Made by a program: the position numbers and the translations under genes. From positions 29,860 through 93,859 of the forward strand of contig JAGAWU010000025.1 in NCBI GenBank assembly GCA_017941235.1: a stretch of DNA of 64,000 nucleotides, given 5' to 3'. Of this stretch, positions 3,751 through 48,179 are shown in pieces (position 1 is the stretch's first letter; each line of letters opens with the position of its first letter). The notes under the pieces are model-generated. The model was not told the DNA's origin and did no database searches. It worked only from the letters and a program-made list of their open reading frames with translations. Source of the DNA: Bacilli bacterium. Lineage in GTDB: Bacteria; Bacillota_I; Bacilli_A; RF39; UBA660.

Positions 3751-4206
3751 ATGAAAGAATATGAAATTAATGAAGGAACGCTTGCAATAATTGCAAATGG
3801 TAAAGGAAAAAGTAGAATTATAGAAGATTCTAATAATTATGTTGTTGATCAAAGTCCTTTTGATGTTATGGAACACAGTTGTAAGTATTTTGGTAGTTCT
3901 TATGAAGGAAGAAAGCAGGGTTCAAAGGAAGTAATAGGTGCTAATTATAAATTACCTATTATAGTAGAAGATGGAAGAAATTTAGTGTTTTTCCCGACAA
4001 CTTCAATAGAAGATGAAGAGTGTATGTGGATTGCAGTCAATAAAATTAAAACATATGAACCATTTGATTATAATACTACTAAAATTACATTTTATACTAA
4101 TCAATTTATAATAATTCCATTATCATATAGATCTGTGCAAAATCAAATATTTAGAGCTACCAGATTAAGTTATATAATAAATGAACGAAAGAAAAAATCC
4201 AATTAA
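3751..4206 (+). CDS. comK: ComK-family competence transcription factor homologue
   Basis: 151 aa. It aligns by eye along its whole length with B. subtilis ComK: YEINEGTLAII vs YEVNGATIAVL; SCKYFGSSYEGRKQGSKEV...KLPIIVED...LVFFPTTS vs SCRFFGSSYAGRKAGTYEV...KPPIMVDP...IFLFPTLS; IIPLSYRSVQNQIFRATRL vs ELPISYNSFENQVYRTAWL. Confidence 0.85.
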   Translation: MKEYEINEGTLAIIANGKGKSRIIEDSNNYVVDQSPFDVMEHSCKYFGSSYEGRKQGSKEVIGANYKLPIIVEDGRNLVFFPTTSIEDEECMWIAVNKIKTYEPFDYNTTKITFYTNQFIIIPLSYRSVQNQIFRATRLSYIINERKKKSN

Positions 4207-4353: not shown

Positions 4354-5466
4354 ATGAAATTAACAAAAATTAATCTATTAAATTTTAGAAATTATGGTAG
4401 ATTGAGTATTTCTCTTAATAAAAGTATGAATATTTTTATTGGAGATAATGCTCAAGGAAAAACTAATATATTAGAAGCTATTAGCTTTTTATCATTGACG
4501 AAATCTTTTAGAGTTATCAATGAACCTGATTTAATAAAATTTAGTAAAGAAAGAGCTGTTGTTAAGGGTAAAGTAAAAGATGAAAATAGTATAAAAGAGC
4601 TTGAAATTGATGTGGAAAAAGGCAAGAAGAGTTTATTTATAAATAAAACTCAAATTAGAAGGACATCTGATTATATTTCAAATTTAATTACTATATCATT
4701 TACTCCTGATGATTTAGAGATAATTAAAAGTTCCCCTAGTGTTAGAAGAAATATACTTAACATACAAATAAGTCAATTATCAAAAACGTATCTAATTACT
4801 TATAATGAATACAATAAGATTTTAAAAACTAGAAATGAATATTTGAAGACATTGTTTTCAAATTCATTAGCTGATAAGAACTATTTTGATATTTTGACTG
4901 ATAAATTAATTAGTAAAGCAGTTACCATATATAAAATGAGAAAAGAGTATATTGAGCTAGTTAATCAAAATATCAGTAGTATATATCAAAAAATTGGTTC
5001 TAGTAAAGAAAAATTAGTTTTAAAATATGAACCAAATGTAGAATTTTCAAGTTTTGAAGATGAATTAATAAAAGAAAAACTCATTAAAATTTATAAAAAA
5101 AATTATTTTAAAGAATTAAATAATGGGATGACTTTATTTGGTCCACATAGAGATGATTTTTCGTTTTATTTGGAAGATAAAAATTTAAAACTGTATGGTT
5201 CACAGGGACAACAAAAATTATCTGTTTTATGTTATAAAATCTCTGAAATAAGTATTTTTGAAAAAATACTAAAAACAAAACCCTTATTGTTATTTGATGA
5301 TATATTTAGTGAATTAGATATAAAAAAAAGAAATAAACTTTTAAAATATGTGCAGGAAGATATACAATCAATTATAACAACTACTGATATAAAAAATATT
5401 AATAAAAAATATTTAGATAATGCATATGTTTTTCAAGTAATTGATGGAAATATAATAAGAAAGTAG
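4354..5466 (+). CDS. recF: DNA replication/repair protein RecF
   Basis: 370 aa. N-terminus is LLNFRNY, Walker A is [14 protein letters not shown], and the signature is GSQGQQK...[11 protein letters not shown]. Confidence 0.95.
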
Positions 5467-5474
5467 GCATTAAT

Positions 5475-7412
5475 ATGGATATAGATGAAAAAGTAGAAAA
5501 CGAATATGATTCTTCGGCTATTCAAGTTTTAGAAGGATTAGAAGCTGTTAGAAAAAGACCAGGTATGTATATTGGTACTACTGATGTAAAAGGTTTACAT
5601 CACTTAGTTTGGGAAATAGTGGATAATTCAATTGATGAAGCTTTAGCTGGATTTTGTAATAATATTGAAATAATTATAAATAAAGATAATAGCATTACTG
5701 TAAAAGACGATGGACGTGGTATTCCGGTAGATGTGCATCCAAAAACTGGAAAAAGTACAGTAGAAACAGTTTATACTGTACTTCATGCTGGTGGAAAATT
5801 TGGTGGTGGAGGCTATAAAGTTTCAGGTGGTCTTCATGGAGTAGGAGCAAGTGTTGTTAATGCTTTATCAAAGTGGGTAGAGGTAAAAGTTTTTAAAAAT
5901 GGTAAAGTTCATTATATAAGATTTGAAAATGGTGGTCATACTGTTGAACCATTACGTGTTATAGATACATGCGAAGAAAATAGGACTGGTACATATGTAA
6001 CTTTTAAACCAGATCCTGAAATTTTTGATACTGACATTTATGATTATAATACATTGATGGTTAGAGTAAGAGAACTTGCTTTTTTAAATAAGGGATTACG
6101 TTTAACATTACGAGATGATAGAGATTTAGATGATACTACTGGTGAAACATTCTTATACGAAGGTGGAATTAGTGAATATGTTAAGTTTATAAATCAAGGA
6201 AAAACACCTATTCATGAGGATATTATTCATTTAGAAGGTGAAGAAAATGATGTAATGTTTGAAGTTGCTATGCAATATAATACAGGTTATAACGAGAATA
6301 TTTATTCATTTGTTAATAATATTAATACTCATGATGGAGGTACACATGAAGAAGGAGTTAGACGTGCTTTAACAAGAGTTATTAATAGTTATGCTAGAAA
6401 AGCTAATATATTAAAGGAAAAAGATGAGTCTTTAACTGGTGATGATGTTAAAGAAGGTTTAACAATGATTGTTTCTTGTAAACATCCAAATCCTCAATTT
6501 GAAGGACAGACAAAAGGGAGACTTGGAAATTCAGAGGTAAGAAAACTTGCTGATAATGTTTTCTCACAAGGCTTTGAGAAATTTTTACTTGAAAATCCGG
6601 ATGAAGCTCGTGCAATAGTTGAAAAGGCTATGCTTGCATGTCGTGCTAGAAATGCAGCAAAAAAAGCAAGAGAAATTACTAGAAAAAGTGATTTAGCTGT
6701 AACAAATTTCTTTGGAAAATTATCTGATTGTAAAAGTAAAGATCCAAAAGTATCTGAAATATTTATAGTCGAGGGAGATTCTGCCGGTGGTTCTGCTAAG
6801 AAAGGTAGAGATTCAATGACACAAGCTATTCTTCCTTTAAGAGGTAAAATACTTAATGTTGAAAAAAATAGACTTGATAGAGCATTAGGAAATGAAGAAA
6901 TTAGAACAATTATTACTGCATTTGGTACTGGTATAGGTGATGAATTTAATTTAGATAAATTAAGATATGATAAAATTATAATAATGACCGATGCCGATGT
7001 TGATGGTTCTCATATTAGAGTTCTTCTTCTAACATTATTTTATCGTTTCTTTAGACCTATAGTTGAAGCAGGACATGTATATGCTGCTCAACCTCCTTTA
7101 TTTAGAATTATGCATGGTAAAACAAGAAAATATGTATTAGATGAAGCTGAAAAGGAAGCATATTTAGCAACTCTTCCTGAAAATGTACGTCAAAGAGCTG
7201 AAATTGCACGTATGAAAGGTCTTGGAGAAATGGATGCTGAGGAACTTAATGAAACAACAATGGATATTGAAAAGCGTATTCTAAGAAAAATTACAGTTAA
7301 TGATTGTATGCTTGCAGATTCTATGTTTACTAAATTAATGGGTGAAGAAGTAGAACCAAGAAGAAAATTTATTGAGGAGAATGCTAGATTCGTTAAGAAT
7401 CTTGATATTTAG
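5475..7412 (+). CDS. gyrB: DNA gyrase subunit B
   Basis: 645 aa. Motifs: [65 protein letters not shown]. Confidence 0.98.
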
Positions 7413-7425
7413 GAGGTGAGTGTTG

Positions 7426-10047
7426 ATGAATAATGAAGAATTAAATAATATTGAAGAAAATATTAATAATGAAAAAGAAGTAATTGATAATAAAAAGATA
7501 GAATCTAATTCTGATGAATTTAATGGTACTTTTCATGAAAGAGACACTCATGATGTTAATGATATTGTAAAAGAAATTAGTGATTCATTTCTTGATTATT
7601 CTATGAGTGTAATCACTTCTCGTGCTATTCCTGATTTAAGAGATGGTTTAAAACCTGTTCATAGAAGAATTTTATGGTCTATGTTTGAAGAAGGAAATAC
7701 TCCTGATAAGCCTCATAAAAAGAGTGCTACTACTGTTGGTTATGTTATGGGACATTATCATCCACATGGTGATAGTTCTATATATGAAGCTATGGTTAGA
7801 CTTGCACAAGATTTTAATCAAAGATATATGATGGTAGATGGGCATGGTAACTTTGGTAATATTGAAGGTGATGGCGCAGCTGCATATCGTTATACTGAAG
7901 CTAGACTTTCTAAGATTTCATTGGAAATGCTTAGGGATATTCGTAAAAATACTGTTGATATGATGCCAAACTTTGATGAAACTAGCCCTGAACCTACAGT
8001 TTTACCTTCAAGAATTCCTAATGTTTTAGTAAATGGTTCTATGGGAATTGCTGTTGGTATGGCTACAAATATTCCACCTCATAACTTAAGTGAAGTTATT
8101 GATGGATGTGTTGCTTATATTGATAATCCTGATATTGATACTTTAGGACTTATGAATTATATTAAGGGACCTGATTTTCCTACTGGTGGTATTATTTTGG
8201 GAAATTCTGGTATTAAACAGGCTTATGAAACTGGTAGAGGTAGTATTACTATACGTAGTAGAGCACAAATTGAAGAATCTGGTAATCATCATCAAATTGT
8301 TATTACAGAGGTTCCATATGGTGTTAATACTATGGATTTAAAAAATAAGGTAGCTGAGCTTGTTCATAATAAGACTATTGAGGGTATATCTGATTACCAT
8401 ACTGATTTAAAAGATGGTGTTAAGATTACTATTACATTAAAGAAAGAAGCAAATCCTCAAGTTGTTTTAAATAATTTATATAAGCATACTAATTTTCAGG
8501 TTAATTATGGGATTATATTTTTAGTTATTGATATGGGTACTCCTAAAACTTTAGGTTTAAAGGAAATAATTGCTAAATATATAGATCATCAAAAGGAAGT
8601 TATTATTAGAAGAACTAAATTTGATTTAAATAAGGCTGAAGAACGTGTTCATATCTTAGAAGGTTATAAGAAAGCTTTAGATAATTTAGATGAAGTAATA
8701 TCTATAATTAGAAATGCTGAAACTGATGTTGAAGCTAAAGAAAAATTAATTTCTAAATTCAATTTTACTGAGATTCAAGCTGATAGTATACTTGAATTAA
8801 AATTACGTCGTTTAACAGGCTTAGAGCGCGAAAAGATTGAGAATGAGTTAAAGGACTTACTTGCTCTAATAAGTGATTTAAAAGCCATTTTAGCTGATGA
8901 AAAACGCGTATTAGAGATTATCAAGAATGAATTATTAGAGATTAAGAATAAATATGGTGATGAGAGACGTACTTCAATCGATATGACTGCTATTGATTAT
9001 ATTGAAGATGAATCTTTAATACCTGTTGAAGATATTATAGTCACATTAACTAATAAGGGTTATATAAAACGTCTTAAATCTGATGTTTATAAAACTCAGA
9101 ATCGTGGTGGCGTTGGAATTAAGGGTATGTCGACAAATGAAGAAGATGTTGTTGAACATTTAATTTCGGCTAAGACACATGATTATATGTTATTCTTCTC
9201 AGATAAAGGTAAGGTATATAGAATAAAAGGATATGAAATACCTGAGTTTAGTAGACAATCTAAAGGTTTACCAATTATTAATTTATTACCATTAGAAAAA
9301 GATGAGAACATTAGTTCGATTATTAATATTTCTTCAGAAGATAATGATTATAAATATCTTGTATTTATAACAAAGAATGGTTTAGTTAAGAAGACTGCTA
9401 TTGAAGAATATGATAATATCAGAAATAGTGGTAAGATTGCTATTAATTTACGTGAAAATGATCAATTGATAAGTGTAAGAAAGACTACTGGTAATGATGA
9501 AATTGTTATTGGTGCAAGTAATGGTCGTTTAGTTCGTTTTAACGAGGAAGAAGCTAGACCAATGGGTAGAACTTCATCTGGTGTTAAAGGTATAGAATTA
9601 GATGGGGCATTTGTTGTAGGTGGAGAAGTTATTCACTCTGATGATTTGATATTAATTGTTACTGATAAAGGTTATGGTAAGCAAACTGATATTAATGAAT
9701 ATAGATTAACTCATAGGGGAAGTAAAGGTGTAAAGGCACTTAATTTAACTGATAAAAATGGTTCTATGATTGCACTAAAAAGAATTGCTTCTAACCAAAA
9801 ATTAGATTTGATGATTATTACTGATAGTGGTATGGTAATGAGAATGCCGCTTGAACAAGTTTCTACATTAAAAAGAGCAACTCAAGGTTTGAGATTAATA
9901 AAATTAAGAGATGATCAATTGGTTGCTAATGTTGCATTAGTTGAAAAATTTGAAGAGGAATCGGATAATGAAAATAAAGATAATAATGAGGATAATTCAG
10001 CTAGTGATATTAATAGTAACAATGTTAATGACGATTCAAAAGAATAA
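7426..10047 (+). CDS. gyrA: DNA gyrase subunit A
   Basis: Motifs: YSMSVITSRAIPDLRDGLKPVHRRIL, HPHGDSSIYEAMVRLAQDF, and the active-site AAAYRYTEARL. The ORF track starts at GTG 7420, but SD aggagg (7411-7416) fits ATG 7426 better. It has a long N/E-rich N-terminal extension and an acidic C-tail. Confidence 0.96.
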   Translation: MNNEELNNIEENINNEKEVIDNKKIESNSDEFNGTFHERDTHDVNDIVKEISDSFLDYSMSVITSRAIPDLRDGLKPVHRRILWSMFEEGNTPDKPHKKSATTVGYVMGHYHPHGDSSIYEAMVRLAQDFNQRYMMVDGHGNFGNIEGDGAAAYRYTEARLSKISLEMLRDIRKNTVDMMPNFDETSPEPTVLPSRIPNVLVNGSMGIAVGMATNIPPHNLSEVIDGCVAYIDNPDIDTLGLMNYIKGPDFPTGGIILGNSGIKQAYETGRGSITIRSRAQIEESGNHHQIVITEVPYGVNTMDLKNKVAELVHNKTIEGISDYHTDLKDGVKITITLKKEANPQVVLNNLYKHTNFQVNYGIIFLVIDMGTPKTLGLKEIIAKYIDHQKEVIIRRTKFDLNKAEERVHILEGYKKALDNLDEVISIIRNAETDVEAKEKLISKFNFTEIQADSILELKLRRLTGLEREKIENELKDLLALISDLKAILADEKRVLEIIKNELLEIKNKYGDERRTSIDMTAIDYIEDESLIPVEDIIVTLTNKGYIKRLKSDVYKTQNRGGVGIKGMSTNEEDVVEHLISAKTHDYMLFFSDKGKVYRIKGYEIPEFSRQSKGLPIINLLPLEKDENISSIINISSEDNDYKYLVFITKNGLVKKTAIEEYDNIRNSGKIAINLRENDQLISVRKTTGNDEIVIGASNGRLVRFNEEEARPMGRTSSGVKGIELDGAFVVGGEVIHSDDLILIVTDKGYGKQTDINEYRLTHRGSKGVKALNLTDKNGSMIALKRIASNQKLDLMIITDSGMVMRMPLEQVSTLKRATQGLRLIKLRDDQLVANVALVEKFEEESDNENKDNNEDNSASDINSNNVNDDSKE

Positions 10048-10093: not shown

Positions 10094-10109
10094 TGTTCCA
10101 CGTGGAACA
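10094..10109. other. parS: parS (ParB/Spo0J binding site) copy 1
   Basis: TGTTCCACGTGGAACA, lying inside the 20-bp perfect palindrome 10092-10111. It matches the B. subtilis consensus TGTTNCACGTGAAACA except for one position, and that change makes it perfectly symmetric. Confidence 0.85.
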
Positions 10110-10116
10110 TAAAAAA

Positions 10117-10132
10117 TATTTCCCGGGAAATA
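10117..10132. other. Noc-binding-site (NBS)-type palindrome copy 1
   Basis: TATTTCCCGGGAAATA, inside the 26-bp perfect palindrome 10112-10137. It contains the full B. subtilis NBS consensus ATTTCCCGGGAAAT and starts 7 nt after parS copy 1. Confidence 0.75.
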
Positions 10133-10265
10133 TTTTTCAACAGCTATTATCTATATATTATTCTTTATTTGAAATTGTCTTATAATATTATTATTAGTTA
10201 AGTAAATATGGAAGTGTGATTGAATATTTATGGATAATAATTATTTTTTTATAAACAAATCCTAA

Positions 10266-10281
10266 TGTTCCACGTGGAACA
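10266..10281. other. parS: parS copy 2
   Basis: TGTTCCACGTGGAACA, inside the 20-bp palindrome 10264-10283. Confidence 0.85.
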
Positions 10282-10287
10282 TTAAAA

Positions 10288-10296
10288 ATATCCACA
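10288..10296 (+). promoter_or_regulatory. DnaA-box-like 9-mer next to parS copy 2
   Basis: ATATCCACA, 1 mismatch to TTATCCACA, lying 6 nt after parS. Confidence 0.4.
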
Positions 10297-10434
10297 GAAA
10301 TTATTAATAAATTATCTTTTGTTATGATATATTTATATTATTTAGTCTATTATTAAAGAATGTGTATTTTTAGTGATTATATTAACGTAAAAAAATATAT
10401 TATATATATAATTGCTTTGATTAATTATTAAAAA

Positions 10435-10450
10435 TATTTCCCGGGAAATA
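10435..10450. other. NBS-type palindrome copy 2
   Basis: TATTTCCCGGGAAATA, at the centre of the 36-bp perfect palindrome 10425-10460 (ttattaaaaatatttcccgggaaatatttttaataa). Confidence 0.75.
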
Positions 10451-10574
10451 TTTTTAATAACAATTATATTTATTTATAATTATTTTTATTAATTTTGCTT
10501 TATTTTTAGTAAATACAATAGTATGTTTGAATATTTTAAATATTTATTGTTTATTTTTTAATAAAAATTTCTGA

Positions 10575-10590
10575 TGTTCCACGTGGAACA
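10575..10590. other. parS: parS copy 3
   Basis: TGTTCCACGTGGAACA, inside the 18-bp palindrome 10574-10591. Confidence 0.85.
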
Positions 10591-10597
10591 TAAAAAA

Positions 10598-10606
10598 ATA
10601 TCCACA
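10598..10606 (+). promoter_or_regulatory. DnaA-box-like 9-mer next to parS copy 3
   Basis: ATATCCACA, 7 nt after parS. It occupies the same relative position as in the previous repeat unit. Confidence 0.4.
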
Positions 10607-10880
10607 GGTTTTATTAATAAAATATGATTTTTTTAAATTTTATTTGATATTATTTGCTCTATTATTAGAAAATGCGTAATTTTTGCGATTTATATTGATG
10701 AAATATATTGTTTTGTATATGTAATTAGTTTGATTAATTATAGGAAATATTTTACTGGCGTTTACATTTAGTTTATGCTATTTATATTTTTTTATAAATT
10801 AGCTATTATTTTGGTAAATTAGTTCAATAAGTTGATATGAATTGATAATTGTTATTTATTTTATTGTAAATAAATAATAA

Positions 10881-10896
10881 TGTTTCACGTGGAACA
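10881..10896. other. parS: parS copy 4
   Basis: TGTTTCACGTGGAACA. Its reverse complement, TGTTCCACGTGAAACA, is an exact match to the B. subtilis parS consensus. Confidence 0.85.
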
Positions 10897-10995: not shown

Positions 10996-10999
10996 ATAT

Positions 11000-11083
11000 G
11001 TGATGCAATAAATAGTTATGGAACCAGGTCAGAATCGGAAGATAGCAGCCTTAACATTTATTATTTATGTGCATCTTTTTTTT
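11000..11083 (+). ncRNA. ffs: small bacterial SRP RNA (4.5S/scRNA type)
   Basis: The core aaCCAGGUCAGAAUCGGAAGAUAGCAGCC (11022-11050) matches the universally conserved SRP domain IV (E. coli ACCAGGUCAGGUCCGGAAGGAAGCAGCC) with a GGAA tetraloop closed by AUC/GAU. The flanking arms gatgca.ataaata.gtta (11002-) and ttaac.atttat..tgcatc (-11075) pair to form the long hairpin, followed by a U-tract. Confidence 0.8.
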
Positions 11084-11548: not shown

Positions 11549-11584
11549 TATATATATGATATAATATGTTTAGAGGTGGGTTAT

Positions 11585-13306
11585 ATGTATCAAACTTTAT
11601 ATAGAAAGTATAGGCCTAAGGACTTTAATCAAGTCGTTGGTCAAGATGTTATTGTGAAAACTCTTAAAAATTCTATAAAAAATGGGAAAGTTAGTCATGC
11701 TTATATGTTTTTTGGGCCTAGAGGTGTCGGTAAAACTTCTATAGCAAAAATTTTTGCACGCACTATAAACTGTAATAATCAAGATGGTAATATTTGTAAT
11801 AATTGTAATGCTTGTATTTCTTCTTCTAATAAGGAATGTCTTGATATTATAGAGATTGATGCTGCATCTAATAATGGTGTGGATGAAATAAGAGAATTAA
11901 GGGATAAGGTTAGTCTTGTTCCTAGTGAATTGAAGTATAAGATTTATATAATTGATGAAGTACATATGCTTACAATACAAGCATTTAATGCTTTACTTAA
12001 AACTTTAGAGGAGCCACCAAGTCATGTTATTTTTATTTTAGCAACTACGGATCCACAAAAAGTTCCGGAAACTATTGTTTCGCGTTGTCAATGTTTTTCT
12101 TTTAATAGGATTTCTAATAATGATATTGTTTTAAATTTGAAGAAAATATGTGATGCTGAAAATATTGATGTTTCAGATGATGTTTTATTTAAAATATCAG
12201 AATTTTCTAATGGTGGAATGAGAGATTCTATAGGTATGCTTGATAAGTTGTATGCTTATTCTGATGATAAGATAACTATGGAGGATTTTATTAAGTTGAA
12301 TCGTATTGTCTCTAATGAAGATATTTTTAATTTGATTCAGTTTATAGATAATAATCAGATAGATGAAGTTGTAAATTTAATTAATGAGTGGGATAGTAAT
12401 GGAATAAATATTATTCAAATTATGGATAGTATATTAGAATTTTTGAAGAATATAATATTGTCAATTTTAAAGGGGGAGAATTCTAAGTTTTCAAGTGTAG
12501 ATAAGTTAATTGATTTAGCTAATCTAATTAACGAAAAAATGTTCGATTTAAAAAAATCTAATTCTCCAAAAATTTATATACAAATTTTGTTCTTAAATTT
12601 TATGAATAATTATCAAAATATCAGTAGAAATATTTCCCGGGAAATATTTTCTGCATCAAATGATAATAGTGACTTAATAAAACCTAAAGTTTTTGAAAAA
12701 AAATCTGAAAAGGAAACAGTAGTTACTGATGGAGATAATAATCCCAAAATGGAAAAGGTAGTTTCTATATTAGAAAAATCTCAAGATGAAGTTAATAAAG
12801 ATACCAAAGTATTAGGAAATAATTTAGAAAATTCTAATATAATTGATATTATGATGATTAGATTAAATAATACTTTAGCTGAAGCTGATAAAGCTGAATT
12901 ATTGAAAGATAAAAATTGCTTTGAAAAGCTAAATGATTTTGTTTTTGATCAGAATATAGGCTATTTAGTATGTAGTTTAATGGATGGCACGCTTAGAGTT
13001 TCAAGTAAGAAAAATATTATTTTAAGTTATGAGTATGATTCAATAGTTAAAGATAATTTATGCCATTTGGATGAATTTAATAAGATTTTAAATGAAAAGT
13101 TGGGTTTGAATAAGAAAATAGGTATAGTTACTGATTTGGTTTGGGAGAAAGAAAAGGCTAATTATATTTCAAAAATTAAAAATAATGATAAATATACCTA
13201 TGTAGAAGAACCAGATTTAGTGTATAATAAAGATGTTACATCTACTACTGAAAATGTTGATGATAATTCTATTGGCATTTTTGGTGATATTGTAGAGGTT
13301 GAATAG
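11585..13306 (+). CDS. dnaX: DNA polymerase III subunit tau (DnaX)
   Basis: Motifs: LYRKYRPKDFNQVVGQ, Walker A GPRGVGKTS, zinc module C..C..C, IIDEVHML, SRCQ. SD gaggtgg fits ATG 11585 better than GTG 11576. Confidence 0.95.
   Translation: MYQTLYRKYRPKDFNQVVGQDVIVKTLKNSIKNGKVSHAYMFFGPRGVGKTSIAKIFARTINCNNQDGNICNNCNACISSSNKECLDIIEIDAASNNGVDEIRELRDKVSLVPSELKYKIYIIDEVHMLTIQAFNALLKTLEEPPSHVIFILATTDPQKVPETIVSRCQCFSFNRISNNDIVLNLKKICDAENIDVSDDVLFKISEFSNGGMRDSIGMLDKLYAYSDDKITMEDFIKLNRIVSNEDIFNLIQFIDNNQIDEVVNLINEWDSNGINIIQIMDSILEFLKNIILSILKGENSKFSSVDKLIDLANLINEKMFDLKKSNSPKIYIQILFLNFMNNYQNISRNISREIFSASNDNSDLIKPKVFEKKSEKETVVTDGDNNPKMEKVVSILEKSQDEVNKDTKVLGNNLENSNIIDIMMIRLNNTLAEADKAELLKDKNCFEKLNDFVFDQNIGYLVCSLMDGTLRVSSKKNIILSYEYDSIVKDNLCHLDEFNKILNEKLGLNKKIGIVTDLVWEKEKANYISKIKNNDKYTYVEEPDLVYNKDVTSTTENVDDNSIGIFGDIVEVE
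12632..12645. other. NBS-type palindrome copy 3, inside the dnaX coding sequence
   Basis: ATTTCCCGGGAAAT, inside the 22-bp palindrome 12628-12649. It encodes part of ...NISRNISREIF... in the DnaX linker. Confidence 0.6.
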
Positions 13307-22879: not shown

Positions 22880-23102
22880 CTGTTTAAAGGCATTGATGAA
22901 GAGTTTTTATTAATTTTGATTTAGAGAGATTCCGGTTGGTGAAAGGAATTGAGAGTTATTAAAAATATGGCTTCTGAGCTAATTTATCGATATGTAGGTA
23001 TTTTCGTTTAATAGGCGTTAACTATTTGAGTGTATAATAATAACTATTATAAAATAAGGTGGTACCGCGATTTTTCGTCCTTATGCTATAATAGTTTTTT
23101 TG
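22880..23102 (+). promoter_or_regulatory. T-box leader riboswitch (Met specifier) controlling metG
   Basis: It has an AGAGAG box (22923-22928) and the distal-loop-like CCGGTTGGTGAAAGG. A candidate specifier AUG at 22967-22969 is followed by a purine. The T-box motif AAGGTGGTACCGCG lies at 23056-23069. The terminator pairs aactattat (23042-23050) with ataatagtt (23088-23096), then a T-run. Confidence 0.8.
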
Positions 23103-31877: not shown

Positions 31878-33857
31878 ATGAATAAAAAAGTTAATAAGAA
31901 AACTATTAAGAGAGGACTTTTACCATATTTATTTATTGTAATTGTTGGTGTTGGAATACTATATGTATTTAATTTTTTAAATCATACTACTAATGTTTTA
32001 ACATATGATGAATTTATTGGTAATCTAAGTAAGGGAAAGGTTAAAACAATTGAGATTACTCCTAGAGATAGAGCACAAACATATGAGGTTACAGGTAAAC
32101 TATCTGGATATGGAGAGAATGAAAGTTATTATGTTATACTACCTAAATCAGATAGTGTTATTAATAAAGTGGTTTCTATAACTGAAGAACAGAAGGTAAA
32201 AATTACTACTAAAGAGGATCCCTCATCAAGTGCTATTTGGTTAGTGTTTGCTGATTTATTTCCATTATTATTACTTTTAGGAATTATGTTCTTTTTCTTG
32301 AGTAGACAAATGGCAGGTAATAAGAGTTCAATGGATTTTGGAAAGAGTAAAGCAAAACTTTCTGATGAAAAAAATAAAGTTACATTTAAGGATGTTGCTG
32401 GACTAAAGGAAGAAAAAGAAGAGGTAAAAGAACTTATTGATTTCTTAAAGAATCCTAAGAAGTTTCAACGTTTGGGTGCTAGAATTCCTAAAGGTGTATT
32501 ATTAATGGGGCCTCCAGGAACTGGTAAAACATTACTTGCAAGAGCTGTAGCAGGTGAAGCTAATGTTCCATTCTATTTTATAAGTGGTTCTGATTTTGTT
32601 GAATTATTTGTAGGTGTTGGAGCAAGTCGTGTTAGAGATATGTTTCAACAAGCAAAAAGAAATGCTCCTTGTCTTATATTTATAGATGAGATTGATGCTG
32701 TAGGTAGACAAAGAGGAACTGGTCTTGGTGGAGGACATGATGAACGTGAACAAACACTTAATCAATTACTTACTGAAATGGATGGTTTTGGTGAGAATAC
32801 AGGAATAATTATTATGGCTGCTACAAATAGGCCTGATGTACTTGATCCTGCTTTATTAAGGCCAGGAAGATTTGATAGACAAGTTACAGTTAGTTTGCCA
32901 GATATTAGAGGTCGTGAGGAGATACTTGCTGTTCACGCTAAAAATAAAAAATTGGCTCCTGATGTAACATTAAAAAATTTAGCTAAGAGAACACCTGGAT
33001 TTAGTGGTGCTGATCTTGAAAATTTATTAAATGAGGCAGCGTTACTTGCTGTAAGACGTGATAAAAATGCTATTACTATGCATGAAGTAGATGAAGCTAC
33101 AGATAGGGTTCTTATGGGTCCTGCTAAAGTTAGTCATAAATATAGCGAAAAAGATAGAAGGTTAGTTGCTTATCATGAAGCAGGTCATGCGGTTATTGGT
33201 TTAAAACTTGCTAGTGCTTCTGACGTTCAAAAAGTAACAATTATTCCACGTGGTTCTGCTGGTGGATATAATATGATGGTTCCAAGTGAAGAAAAACTAT
33301 GTTCAACTAAGACAGACTTATTAGAACAAATAACTGGACTTTTAGGAGGACGTGTTGCTGAAGAAATCGTATTTAAGGAAGTAACTACAGGTGCTGAAAA
33401 CGATTTTTCTAAGGCTACTAAAATTGTTAGAGCTATGGTTACTGAATATGGTATGAGTGATTTAGGTCCACTTCAATTAGAACATCAAGAGGGTGCTGCT
33501 TTCTTAGGAAGAGATTATAATAAGTCTCGTAATTTTTCTGAAACTGTTGCACATGAAATAGATATAGAAATGAGAAAAATAATCGATAAGTGCTATGTTG
33601 ATGCTAAAAAGATTATTAAGGATAATAGAGAACTTCTTAATTTAATAGCTGAGACTTTATTAGAATATGAGACATTAACTAAAGAGCAAATTGATTATTT
33701 AGTGGAAAATGGTAAAATGCCAGAAGAAGATAATGAAAATTTAGAATCTATGTCTTTAACTAGTCTAAGACAATTAGCAAAGGAAAAAGGTATTAAAAAT
33801 TCATCTAAAATGAATAAGGCAGAAATTATAGATGAATTAGATAAAATTAAGGAATAG
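31878..33857 (+). CDS. ftsH: ATP-dependent zinc metalloprotease FtsH
   Basis: 659 aa with two TM segments. Motifs: Walker [15 protein letters not shown], and the zinc site HEAGHA. Confidence 0.98.
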
Positions 33858-48039: not shown

Positions 48040-48045
48040 ATATAT

Positions 48046-48150
48046 GAATTTGTTGGTGCCATAGACAGTAGGTTGTTTGTAAATCCTACCGAGGACTACG
48101 TTAATTATGTAAGTTAAGGTTCTCGTGTCTATTACGAGAACCTTTTTTAT
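48046..48150 (+). promoter_or_regulatory. ribosomal protein L10 leader (autoregulatory attenuator)
   Basis: Stem agacagtagg...cctaccgagg (48063-48093), then the terminator-like hairpin aaggttctcgt/acgagaacctt (48116-48144) plus a T-run, just before the rplJ SD. This architecture and position match the Firmicute L10 leader. Confidence 0.65.
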
Positions 48151-48179
48151 GGCAACTCTTCAAGAAGGAGGTGTAGATA

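Follow-up and report, generated by a model that had tools for sequence, protein, structure and literature searches.

Interleaved parS and Noc-binding sites in the gyrA-ffs spacer of an uncultured gut Bacilli bacterium

Sites and repeat units of the gyrA-ffs spacer

The 64,000-nt stretch of DNA analyzed here (the window) comes from a Bacilli bacterium assembly (GCA_017941235.1, contig JAGAWU010000025.1), and it carries dnaA, dnaN, a ComK-like gene, recF, gyrB and gyrA, then a spacer, and then ffs, the gene for the small signal recognition particle (SRP) RNA, tadA and dnaX. The spacer between gyrA and ffs holds four perfect copies of parS, the site of the chromosome segregation protein ParB, and two perfect 16-bp copies of the Noc-binding site (NBS), the site of the ParB paralogue Noc, along with one half-deleted NBS relic. 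For parS we used the consensus TGTTNCACGTGNAACA and for the 16-bp form of the NBS TATTTCCCGGGAAATA; the palindromes in the window match the NBS of Bacillus subtilis and Staphylococcus aureus in full and are interleaved with the parS sites, which lie 7.7-8.5 kb to the right of dnaA. An earlier note on this DNA had described such interleaving, with one NBS only 7 nt from a parS, and all of its coordinates for the NBS, the palindromes, the relic and the gap were reproduced. The first parS ends at 10109 and the first 16-bp NBS begins at 10117, which leaves the gap of 7 nt; the 26-bp palindrome around this NBS has arms at 10112-10124 and 10125-10137 that are 100% complementary, and the perfect 36-bp palindrome around the second NBS (10425-10460) is made up of TTATTAAAAATATTTCCC and GGGAAATATTTTTAATAA. 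Our analysis adds to the earlier note a third NBS inside dnaX, DnaA-box-like motifs beside parS, a Noc-like protein that has no membrane-targeting helix, and conservation of the arrangement across a clade.

The number of sites is far above expectation for DNA of this composition (27.6% GC). The NBS consensus ATTTCCCGGGAAAT occurs exactly at 10118-10131, 10436-10449 and 12632-12645 in the scan of the 64-kb window, compared to 0.15 copies expected, and 0 of 100 shuffles gave three. These three sites fall within 2.5 kb of one another, and neither the other ~51 kb of the window nor ~19 kb of DNA examined to its left contains a further NBS. The parS scan, which allowed up to two mismatches, returned five matches in the window against 0.10 expected, a number that no shuffle attained; four of the five are exact, and the fifth is a two-mismatch copy at 33545.

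A repeat search and MAFFT alignment resolved the spacer into an array of tandem ~310-bp units; Tandem Repeats Finder, when run on the window, did not report them given that they are too diverged. Each unit is laid out as a parS, a DnaA-box-like ATATCCACA 6-7 nt further on, an AT-rich stretch of ~140 bp, the NBS and another ~125 bp. The units are ~72% identical by column in the alignment, with parS and one flanking base on each side invariant. Two deletions account for irregularities of the array: a 14-bp deletion in unit 3 removed the left half of its NBS and left the relic at 10743-10753, and a ~150-bp internal deletion in unit 1 is the reason that its parS and NBS are only 7 nt apart. Another strain of this species (L001) carries an additional complete unit, which brings it to five parS and three NBS, while the array of a third strain (L002) matches that of the window. 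The comparison of strains and units thus points to the gain and loss of units with both site types kept perfect and, at the level of sequence, shows selection that appears to target the parS and NBS sites and not the array around them. The features of the locus are collected in Table 1.

Table 1. Features of the parS/NBS array and its surroundings, in window coordinates unless another locus is named
Feature	Position	Strand	Basis or remark
Noc-like gene, 528 aa	L007 4437-6023	+	just left of window
gyrA	7420..10047	+	conserved left boundary of array; open reading frame (ORF) list; Pfam DNA_topoisoIV and DNA_gyraseA_C on the identical L001 gene; tblastn synteny in ~117 genomes
parS-1, TGTTCCACGTGGAACA, perfect palindrome	10094..10109		motif scan
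NBS-1, TATTTCCCGGGAAATA at 10117-10132 in 26-bp perfect palindrome	10112..10137		motif scan and palindrome check
parS-2, TGTTCCACGTGGAACA	10266..10281		motif scan
DnaA-box-like ATATCCACA, one mismatch to TTATCCACA, 6 nt past parS-2	10288..10296	+	motif scan
NBS-2, TATTTCCCGGGAAATA at 10435-10450 in 36-bp perfect palindrome	10425..10460		motif scan and palindrome check
parS-3, TGTTCCACGTGGAACA	10575..10590		motif scan
DnaA-box-like ATATCCACA, 7 nt past parS-3	10598..10606	+	motif scan
NBS relic GGAAATATTTT, right half only; strain L001 has an intact copy in its extra unit	10743..10753		sequence and unit alignment
parS-4, TGTTTCACGTGGAACA	10881..10896		motif scan
ffs, small SRP RNA gene, right boundary of array in this species	10997..11083	+	Rfam RF00169, 54.8 bits against a gathering score of 40
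NBS-3, TATTTCCCGGGAAATA inside the dnaX ORF (11576-13306)	12631..12646		motif scan

ParB and a Noc-like paralogue

The window begins ~1 kb left of dnaA, and the DNA upstream of it was taken from metagenome contigs that encode an identical DnaA, after which the DNA around the ParB-like gene of those contigs (locus L007) was examined. The gene order at L007 is mnmE, mnmG, rsmG, a ParB-like gene of 528 aa, ParA/Soj (261 aa), ParB (298 aa) and DUF951, which, judged by synteny, is the classical Firmicute rsmG-noc-soj-parB arrangement. The earlier note had proposed that ParB-family paralogues be counted near rsmG and soj just left of the window, and had named the lack of a Noc-like second paralogue, combined with a single ParB that does not bind the palindrome, as an outcome that would speak against it; two ParB-family genes lie there, and the 528-aa product is Noc-like. 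No further ParB, Noc or Soj paralogue was found in the window.

The 298-aa protein has B. subtilis Spo0J (6SDK) as its best PDB match, and it carries the N-terminal ParA-binding motif ..ALGKGLEELF.. and the residues R-T-K-G at positions 173, 179, 184 and 201. The 261-aa protein matches Pfam ParA/CbiA/AAA_31, and its best hits on NCBIfam are ParA-superfamily models, all under their cut-offs. For the 528-aa protein, the best PDB matches are the Noc structures 7NFU, 7NG0 and 7OL9 (E = 2e-61), and Pfam recognizes ParB_N and HTH_ParB. Its last 60 residues are 35% identical to the C-terminus of B. subtilis Noc, and its predicted motif for binding cytidine triphosphate (CTP), GERR (GERRxRA in the family), lies in a segment (IIAGERRYKA) that is invariant across homologues. 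The four specificity positions read Q-K-A-R, where Q, K and R align to Q173, K179 and R201 of Noc; three of the four residues of the Noc signature are therefore identical, and the pattern in the clade is Q-K-A/S-R.

These residues can be read against published biochemistry. R173 and G201 are invariant in ParB (RxxG), while in Noc Q173 recognizes adenine 1 of the NBS and R201 cytosine 6, these two residues together with one Lys at 179 or 184 being sufficient for NBS specificity (Jalal 2020, PMC7383237). The residue signatures, which the earlier note had suggested inspecting, lead us to predict that the ParB of this organism binds parS only and the Noc-like protein NBS only. The earlier note had also raised the possibility of a single ParB-family protein with specificity for both sites. 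Such proteins can be made in the laboratory, where 82 of the variants screened were dual-specific (Jalal 2020, PMC7383237). Most of those variants carried Thr or Ser at position 201, which neither protein has here, and the organism encodes two paralogues, one with the R..G signature of a specific parS binder and the other with the Q-K-x-R signature of a specific NBS binder; a dual-specificity protein is for this reason very improbable, and we set this suggestion aside.

The Noc-like protein departs from its characterized relatives at its N-terminus and in its linker. The N-terminus (MQSGQEV...) opens directly in the ParB N-domain, and an in-frame stop codon (TAG) precedes it by 21 nt. In the alignment its residue 3 falls on residue 24 of Geobacillus thermoleovorans Noc, so that the ~22 first residues of Geobacillus and Bacillus Noc, among which their amphipathic helix lies, are absent. 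This short N-terminus is invariant in 25 homologues and at the loci of relatives, and the gene encoding it adjoins rsmG in ~25 relatives, wherever the contigs reach. Between the DNA-binding and C-terminal domains lie ~260 low-complexity residues, which are predicted to be disordered with a few short helices; the AlphaFold2 model of the 528-aa protein is of low confidence (mean pLDDT [predicted local distance difference test] of 53, from a 25-sequence alignment) and was used for linker disorder only. Four linker motifs are kept across the 25 homologues, namely, NYGE.DEDEI, KISNDLDSLLNI (a predicted short helix), DYFQ.PDL..I.LP and K[ST]LGMALIEETY. Homologues of 500-540 aa are abundant in metagenome-assembled genomes (MAGs) labeled "Bacilli bacterium," on contigs of up to 1.3 Mb.

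Conservation and turnover across species

We scanned one genome per species of the GTDB for TGTTNCACGTGNAACA followed, after a gap of 0-30 nt, by TTTCCCGGGAAA, which yields a sample selected on the feature itself. At least 119 stretches matched in these species-representative genomes, and in ~117 among the matches listed the sites fall in the same gap from gyrA through the cluster to dnaX, with a GyrA 42-79% identical to that of the window. The listed matches are gut MAGs of 23-32% GC save for one member of 37% GC and two high-GC Clostridia MAGs. In the latter (L039 7478-7524, 62% GC; L101 7593-7621, 53% GC), parS adjoins cTTTCCCGGGAAAa without the TA flanks of the NBS, and these two were rejected as instances of the same arrangement since they hold a 12-mer core beside parS and no 16-bp NBS; the pair in L039 stands beside soj-parB and may be a chance occurrence or a different site. 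The clade's MAGs are labeled inconsistently (Bacilli, Erysipelotrichaceae, Tenericutes, "Muribaculaceae," "Mycoplasma" and Clostridium sp. CAG:xxx), and the only firm link to a taxonomy is that of CAG-1000 to the GTDB order RF39. About 84 kb of the genome and 8-20 kb per relative were examined, and the cross-species counts given here are not phylogenetically independent.

Among the matches listed, 74 spacers are complete; their median length is 1.2 kb and they contain 1-9 parS and 1-7 NBS, with 9 NBS in the largest array. The commonest order is parS-NBS-parS inside ~60 bp, and several species have clean tandem units of 75-82 bp with one parS and one NBS each. The linkers of these units are unrelated between species, which indicates that the amplifications were independent. 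Across species parS extends to A-TGTTyCACGTGrAACA-T, and all 224 of the 224 sites that were anchored only on TTCCCGGGAA proved to be the full TATTTCCCGGGAAATA with AAA/TTT flanks.

This invariance bears on a further caution in the earlier note, that the palindrome might be a generic dispersed repeat or a restriction-related motif. CCCGGG is the SmaI/XmaI recognition site, and a palindrome extended by a run of A and a run of T superficially resembles a bidirectional terminator or RNA hairpin. Against a restriction-modification target or dispersed repeat stand the 16-mer kept throughout the cross-species sites, the confinement of the sites to one locus, and the CCCGGG count of the 64-kb window, in which there are only three copies and each is part of a full NBS. 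A terminator scan of the array, itself uninformative in such AT-rich DNA, gave a parS hairpin only and no NBS, and one of the sites is coding and read in three frames, as described below. We consider this class of explanations to be practically refuted by the restriction of the sites to one locus and by the retention of the full 16-mer.

A second sample was drawn blind to the sites, by means of the clade-specific ComK-like gene beside dnaN, and comprised 80 loci. Complete gyrA-dnaX spacers were present at 24 of these, from ~16 distinct lineages, and every one of the 24 held at least two parS and at least one NBS when one mismatch was allowed. The 35 kb of spacer in this sample contain 81 parS and 54 NBS, and a further 11 NBS lie in dnaX; neither type of site was found in 339 kb of upstream DNA or 26 kb of downstream DNA. 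The ComK-domain protein of the window has 151 aa (3751-4206, + strand) and lies between dnaN and recF, where it is found clade-wide at 37-52% identity; the corresponding position in B. subtilis is occupied by yaaA/rlbA.

A k-mer enrichment over the whole spacer was abandoned as a source of motifs, the SRP RNA gene having dominated the signal. The only other recurring spacer motif found by k-mers is a one-mismatch NBS variant, TTTCCTGGGAAA. We also observed the one-mismatch variant ATTTCCTGGGAAAT, in which a central C is changed to T and the palindrome is broken, at L142 16350, L143 16123 and L146 11426 and at 18 genome loci, where it takes the place of the perfect NBS of other species.

The centers of parS and NBS lie from ~16 to >50 bp apart, with broad humps near 25 and 36 in counts that are inflated by tandem copies and related species. 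Fixed helical phasing of the two sites was considered and rejected, as there was no convincing single phase, and the variable spacing argues, on sequence grounds, against an obligate rigid contact between the two proteins at their loading sites.

The NBS is also found away from parS, near ybaB/recR in relatives and within dnaX. The copy in the dnaX of the window encodes N-I-S-R-E-I in the variable linker of DnaX by means of rare codons (TCC for 8 of 294 Ser, CGG for 1 of 183 Arg), and 36 of 113 relatives have an NBS ~1.03-1.19 kb into the gene. It is mostly read as ISREI, as YFPGN in five species and as LFPGK in one; across these three frames, what is conserved is the DNA motif and not the peptide. 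The position of the NBS directly upstream of and inside the dnaX operon would fit a role mainly as operators, with the Noc-like clamp serving as a KorB-like silencer or regulator of ffs-tadA-dnaX-ybaB-recR or of gyrA read-through and not as a segregation or division factor. The missing membrane helix would agree with such a role, as would the regulation of transcription by ParB-family clamps such as KorB, for which PMC12704722 carries a citation. The number of NBS in the spacers given above and their variable position are, however, not what would be expected of an operator, the NBS alternate with parS instead of being placed relative to a promoter, and a promoter scan of the array gave no excess of promoter-like sites (21 compared to 15.5 +/- 4.3 expected, in AT-rich DNA where such a scan is uninformative). 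We therefore regard the operator explanation as improbable.

DnaA boxes are a recurrent element of the arrays, with 68 hits compared to 10 +/- 3 in shuffles. There are 23 perfect copies of TTATCCACA and 19 of TTTTCCACA, often 12-25 bp from the center of a parS (L014, L099 and others). We rejected the DnaA box as an obligatory third element, given that only 30 of 113 arrays contain one. Pairs of TTTTCCACA also stand on either side of dnaA in the window, one pair upstream of the gene on the minus strand (640-657) and the other in the 139 bp between dnaA and dnaN (2379-2449), which would fit a bipartite oriC situated ~8 kb leftward of the array. Rfam identified two ordinary features of the window unrelated to the array, a T-box leader (22884-23085, 101.9 bits) and a ribosomal protein L10 leader (48041-48157, 53.9 bits). 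Left of the window, L001 has a 653-aa DUF87 (HerA/FtsK-like ATPase) gene at 5442-7403 (+) inserted between mnmE and jag, on the strand opposite to its neighbors.

A candidate composite centromere and its meaning

The identity of the parS and NBS sites is well supported by sequence, and we think it somewhat better than even that the gyrA-ffs spacer acts as a composite centromere near the origin, at which two paralogous CTP-dependent DNA clamps are loaded. Functional coupling of ParB and Noc at the array is what we infer from this arrangement. On the basis of published biochemistry, ParB would nucleate on parS only and Noc on NBS only; each protein would then close to a CTP clamp and slide off its site, so that the two would come to cover one common region of a few kilobases in which oriC, ~8 kb leftward, is included. 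The activity of Noc would be concentrated on the centromere and origin and not on the chromosome arms. More speculatively, origin segregation by ParB, Soj and SMC loading could be coupled to the output of Noc, which might be a block of division over unsegregated origins, a restraint on initiation as in S. aureus, or both. The variable spacing of the sites would agree with a loading zone that the two proteins share, or with ParB and Noc acting as roadblocks that confine one another.

Several observations weigh against the composite centromere. The Noc-like protein scores 281.4 bits on NCBIfam TIGR04285, under the curated cut-off of 315, and its match covers only profile positions 1-204 of 255, compared to 227 bits for the ParB of the same genome; the match is partial because the long insertion splits off the C-terminal domain. 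Ala or Ser takes the place of the near-invariant Lys184. The protein has no N-terminal amphipathic membrane-targeting helix, which in B. subtilis Noc is required for membrane binding and nucleoid occlusion (Adams 2015; Jalal 2021), and because of this absence Noc function is not simply transferable. The unfixed spacing of parS and NBS gives no sign that ParB and Noc touch or influence each other, and NBS scattered elsewhere on the chromosome would weaken the claim of a centromere-focused Noc.

Co-location without coupling is a serious rival, even if we judge it unlikely. The NBS would have arisen from copies of parS and been kept in a tolerated noncoding landing pad near oriC, with the two proteins acting independently and Noc also having many sites elsewhere as in B. 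subtilis. That parS and NBS differ at only two positions per half-site (Jalal 2020) would ease such an origin, and the growth and shrinkage of arrays by unit duplication and deletion, the variable spacing with no fixed phase, and the NBS away from parS in dnaX and near ybaB/recR all agree with it. It accounts less readily for the retention of both site types in all 24 unbiased spacers despite complete turnover around them, for independently amplified units that each contain one parS and one NBS, or for a commonest pattern in which parS, NBS and parS share ~60 bp. The DNA without NBS, which includes the remainder of the window, the stretch to its left and the relatives' 339-kb upstream flank, also stands against it.

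The Noc of this clade probably does not act by the DNA-to-membrane tethering known from B. subtilis, a mechanism made improbable by the absent helix and the long disordered linker with its conserved short motifs. We tentatively propose, as a possibility short of an even chance, that it is a second centromere-resident CTP clamp beside ParB on one shared array and not a chromosome-wide membrane-tethering nucleoid-occlusion factor. A centromere-resident Noc could be ancestral after the duplication of ParB, with NBS derived from parS copies in a tandem array and the membrane helix and scatter of NBS in Bacillus and Staphylococcus acquired later. Alternatively, it could be a derived refocusing of Noc on the origin in small-genome bacteria.

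Clusters of several parS occur in Caulobacter, Corynebacterium, Myxococcus and Streptomyces, where a cluster is not known to serve more than one protein. The array described here resembles known ParABS clusters in having several near-perfect parS a few kilobases from oriC, in the combination of ParB, ParA and parS, and in a copy number that varies among relatives; it differs from them in that the sites of a second paralogous clamp are woven in, often in strict 1:1 tandem units. Another parallel is the RacA-ram system, the centromere-like elements of sporulating B. subtilis reportedly described by Ben-Yehuda in 2005. There, too, a second DNA-binding protein is said to recognize GC-rich palindromes around the origin, and RacA to position the origin region alongside Spo0J-parS, whereas RacA is reportedly unrelated to ParB and sporulation specific, and ram sites are spread over hundreds of kilobases and not interleaved with parS.

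The closest relative is the Noc-NBS system of B. subtilis and S. aureus (Wu 2009; Adams 2015; Pang 2017; Jalal 2020, 2021), with which the clade shares the identical 16-bp TATTTCCCGGGAAATA, a ParB paralogue encoded between rsmG and soj, the GERR CTP motif, Q173/K179/R201 and a Noc-type C-terminal domain. The NBS of those species number in the tens (S. aureus Noc gives 41 peaks in chromatin immunoprecipitation; Pang 2017, PMC5540599), are scattered over the origin-proximal chromosome and have not been described as interleaved with parS. In the clade, unlike B. subtilis and S. aureus, 1-9 NBS are packed with parS into a spacer of 1-2 kb, and the Noc itself is without the 10-residue membrane-targeting helix and helix alpha2 required for nucleoid occlusion, has Ala or Ser at 184 and contains the ~260-residue disordered insertion. 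Genetic evidence indicates that Spo0J and Noc of B. subtilis cooperate on division timing (Hajduk 2019, PMC6852036), and in S. aureus, where NBS are origin biased, Noc controls initiation (Pang 2017, PMC5540599). That cooperation is genetic and involves no shared site cluster, whereas in the clade the co-location is built into the DNA. The earlier note knew of no described locus of this kind, and we likewise found neither interleaved or adjacent parS and NBS nor a helix-less Noc variant in searches of full-text literature or in the main publications on Noc and ParB, among them a survey of the ParB fold from 2025 (PMC12704722). The components are thus all known, and what is new is the composite arrangement, its conservation across the clade and its association with a helix-less Noc.

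ParB and Noc are the two best-studied CTP-switch DNA clamps and are regarded as a textbook case of duplication with a clean split of sites and functions. The arrays, with sites at times 0-7 nt apart and often in 1:1 units, offer a natural test system for whether paralogous clamps block, confine or help each other. The helix-less Noc points to a helix-independent function of Noc at the origin or centromere, and the arrangement provides a concrete scenario for the evolution of NBS and Noc from parS and ParB. The arrays also mark out the centromere in a large, uncultured group of gut Bacilli, in which the GTDB order RF39 accounts for at least some of the members.

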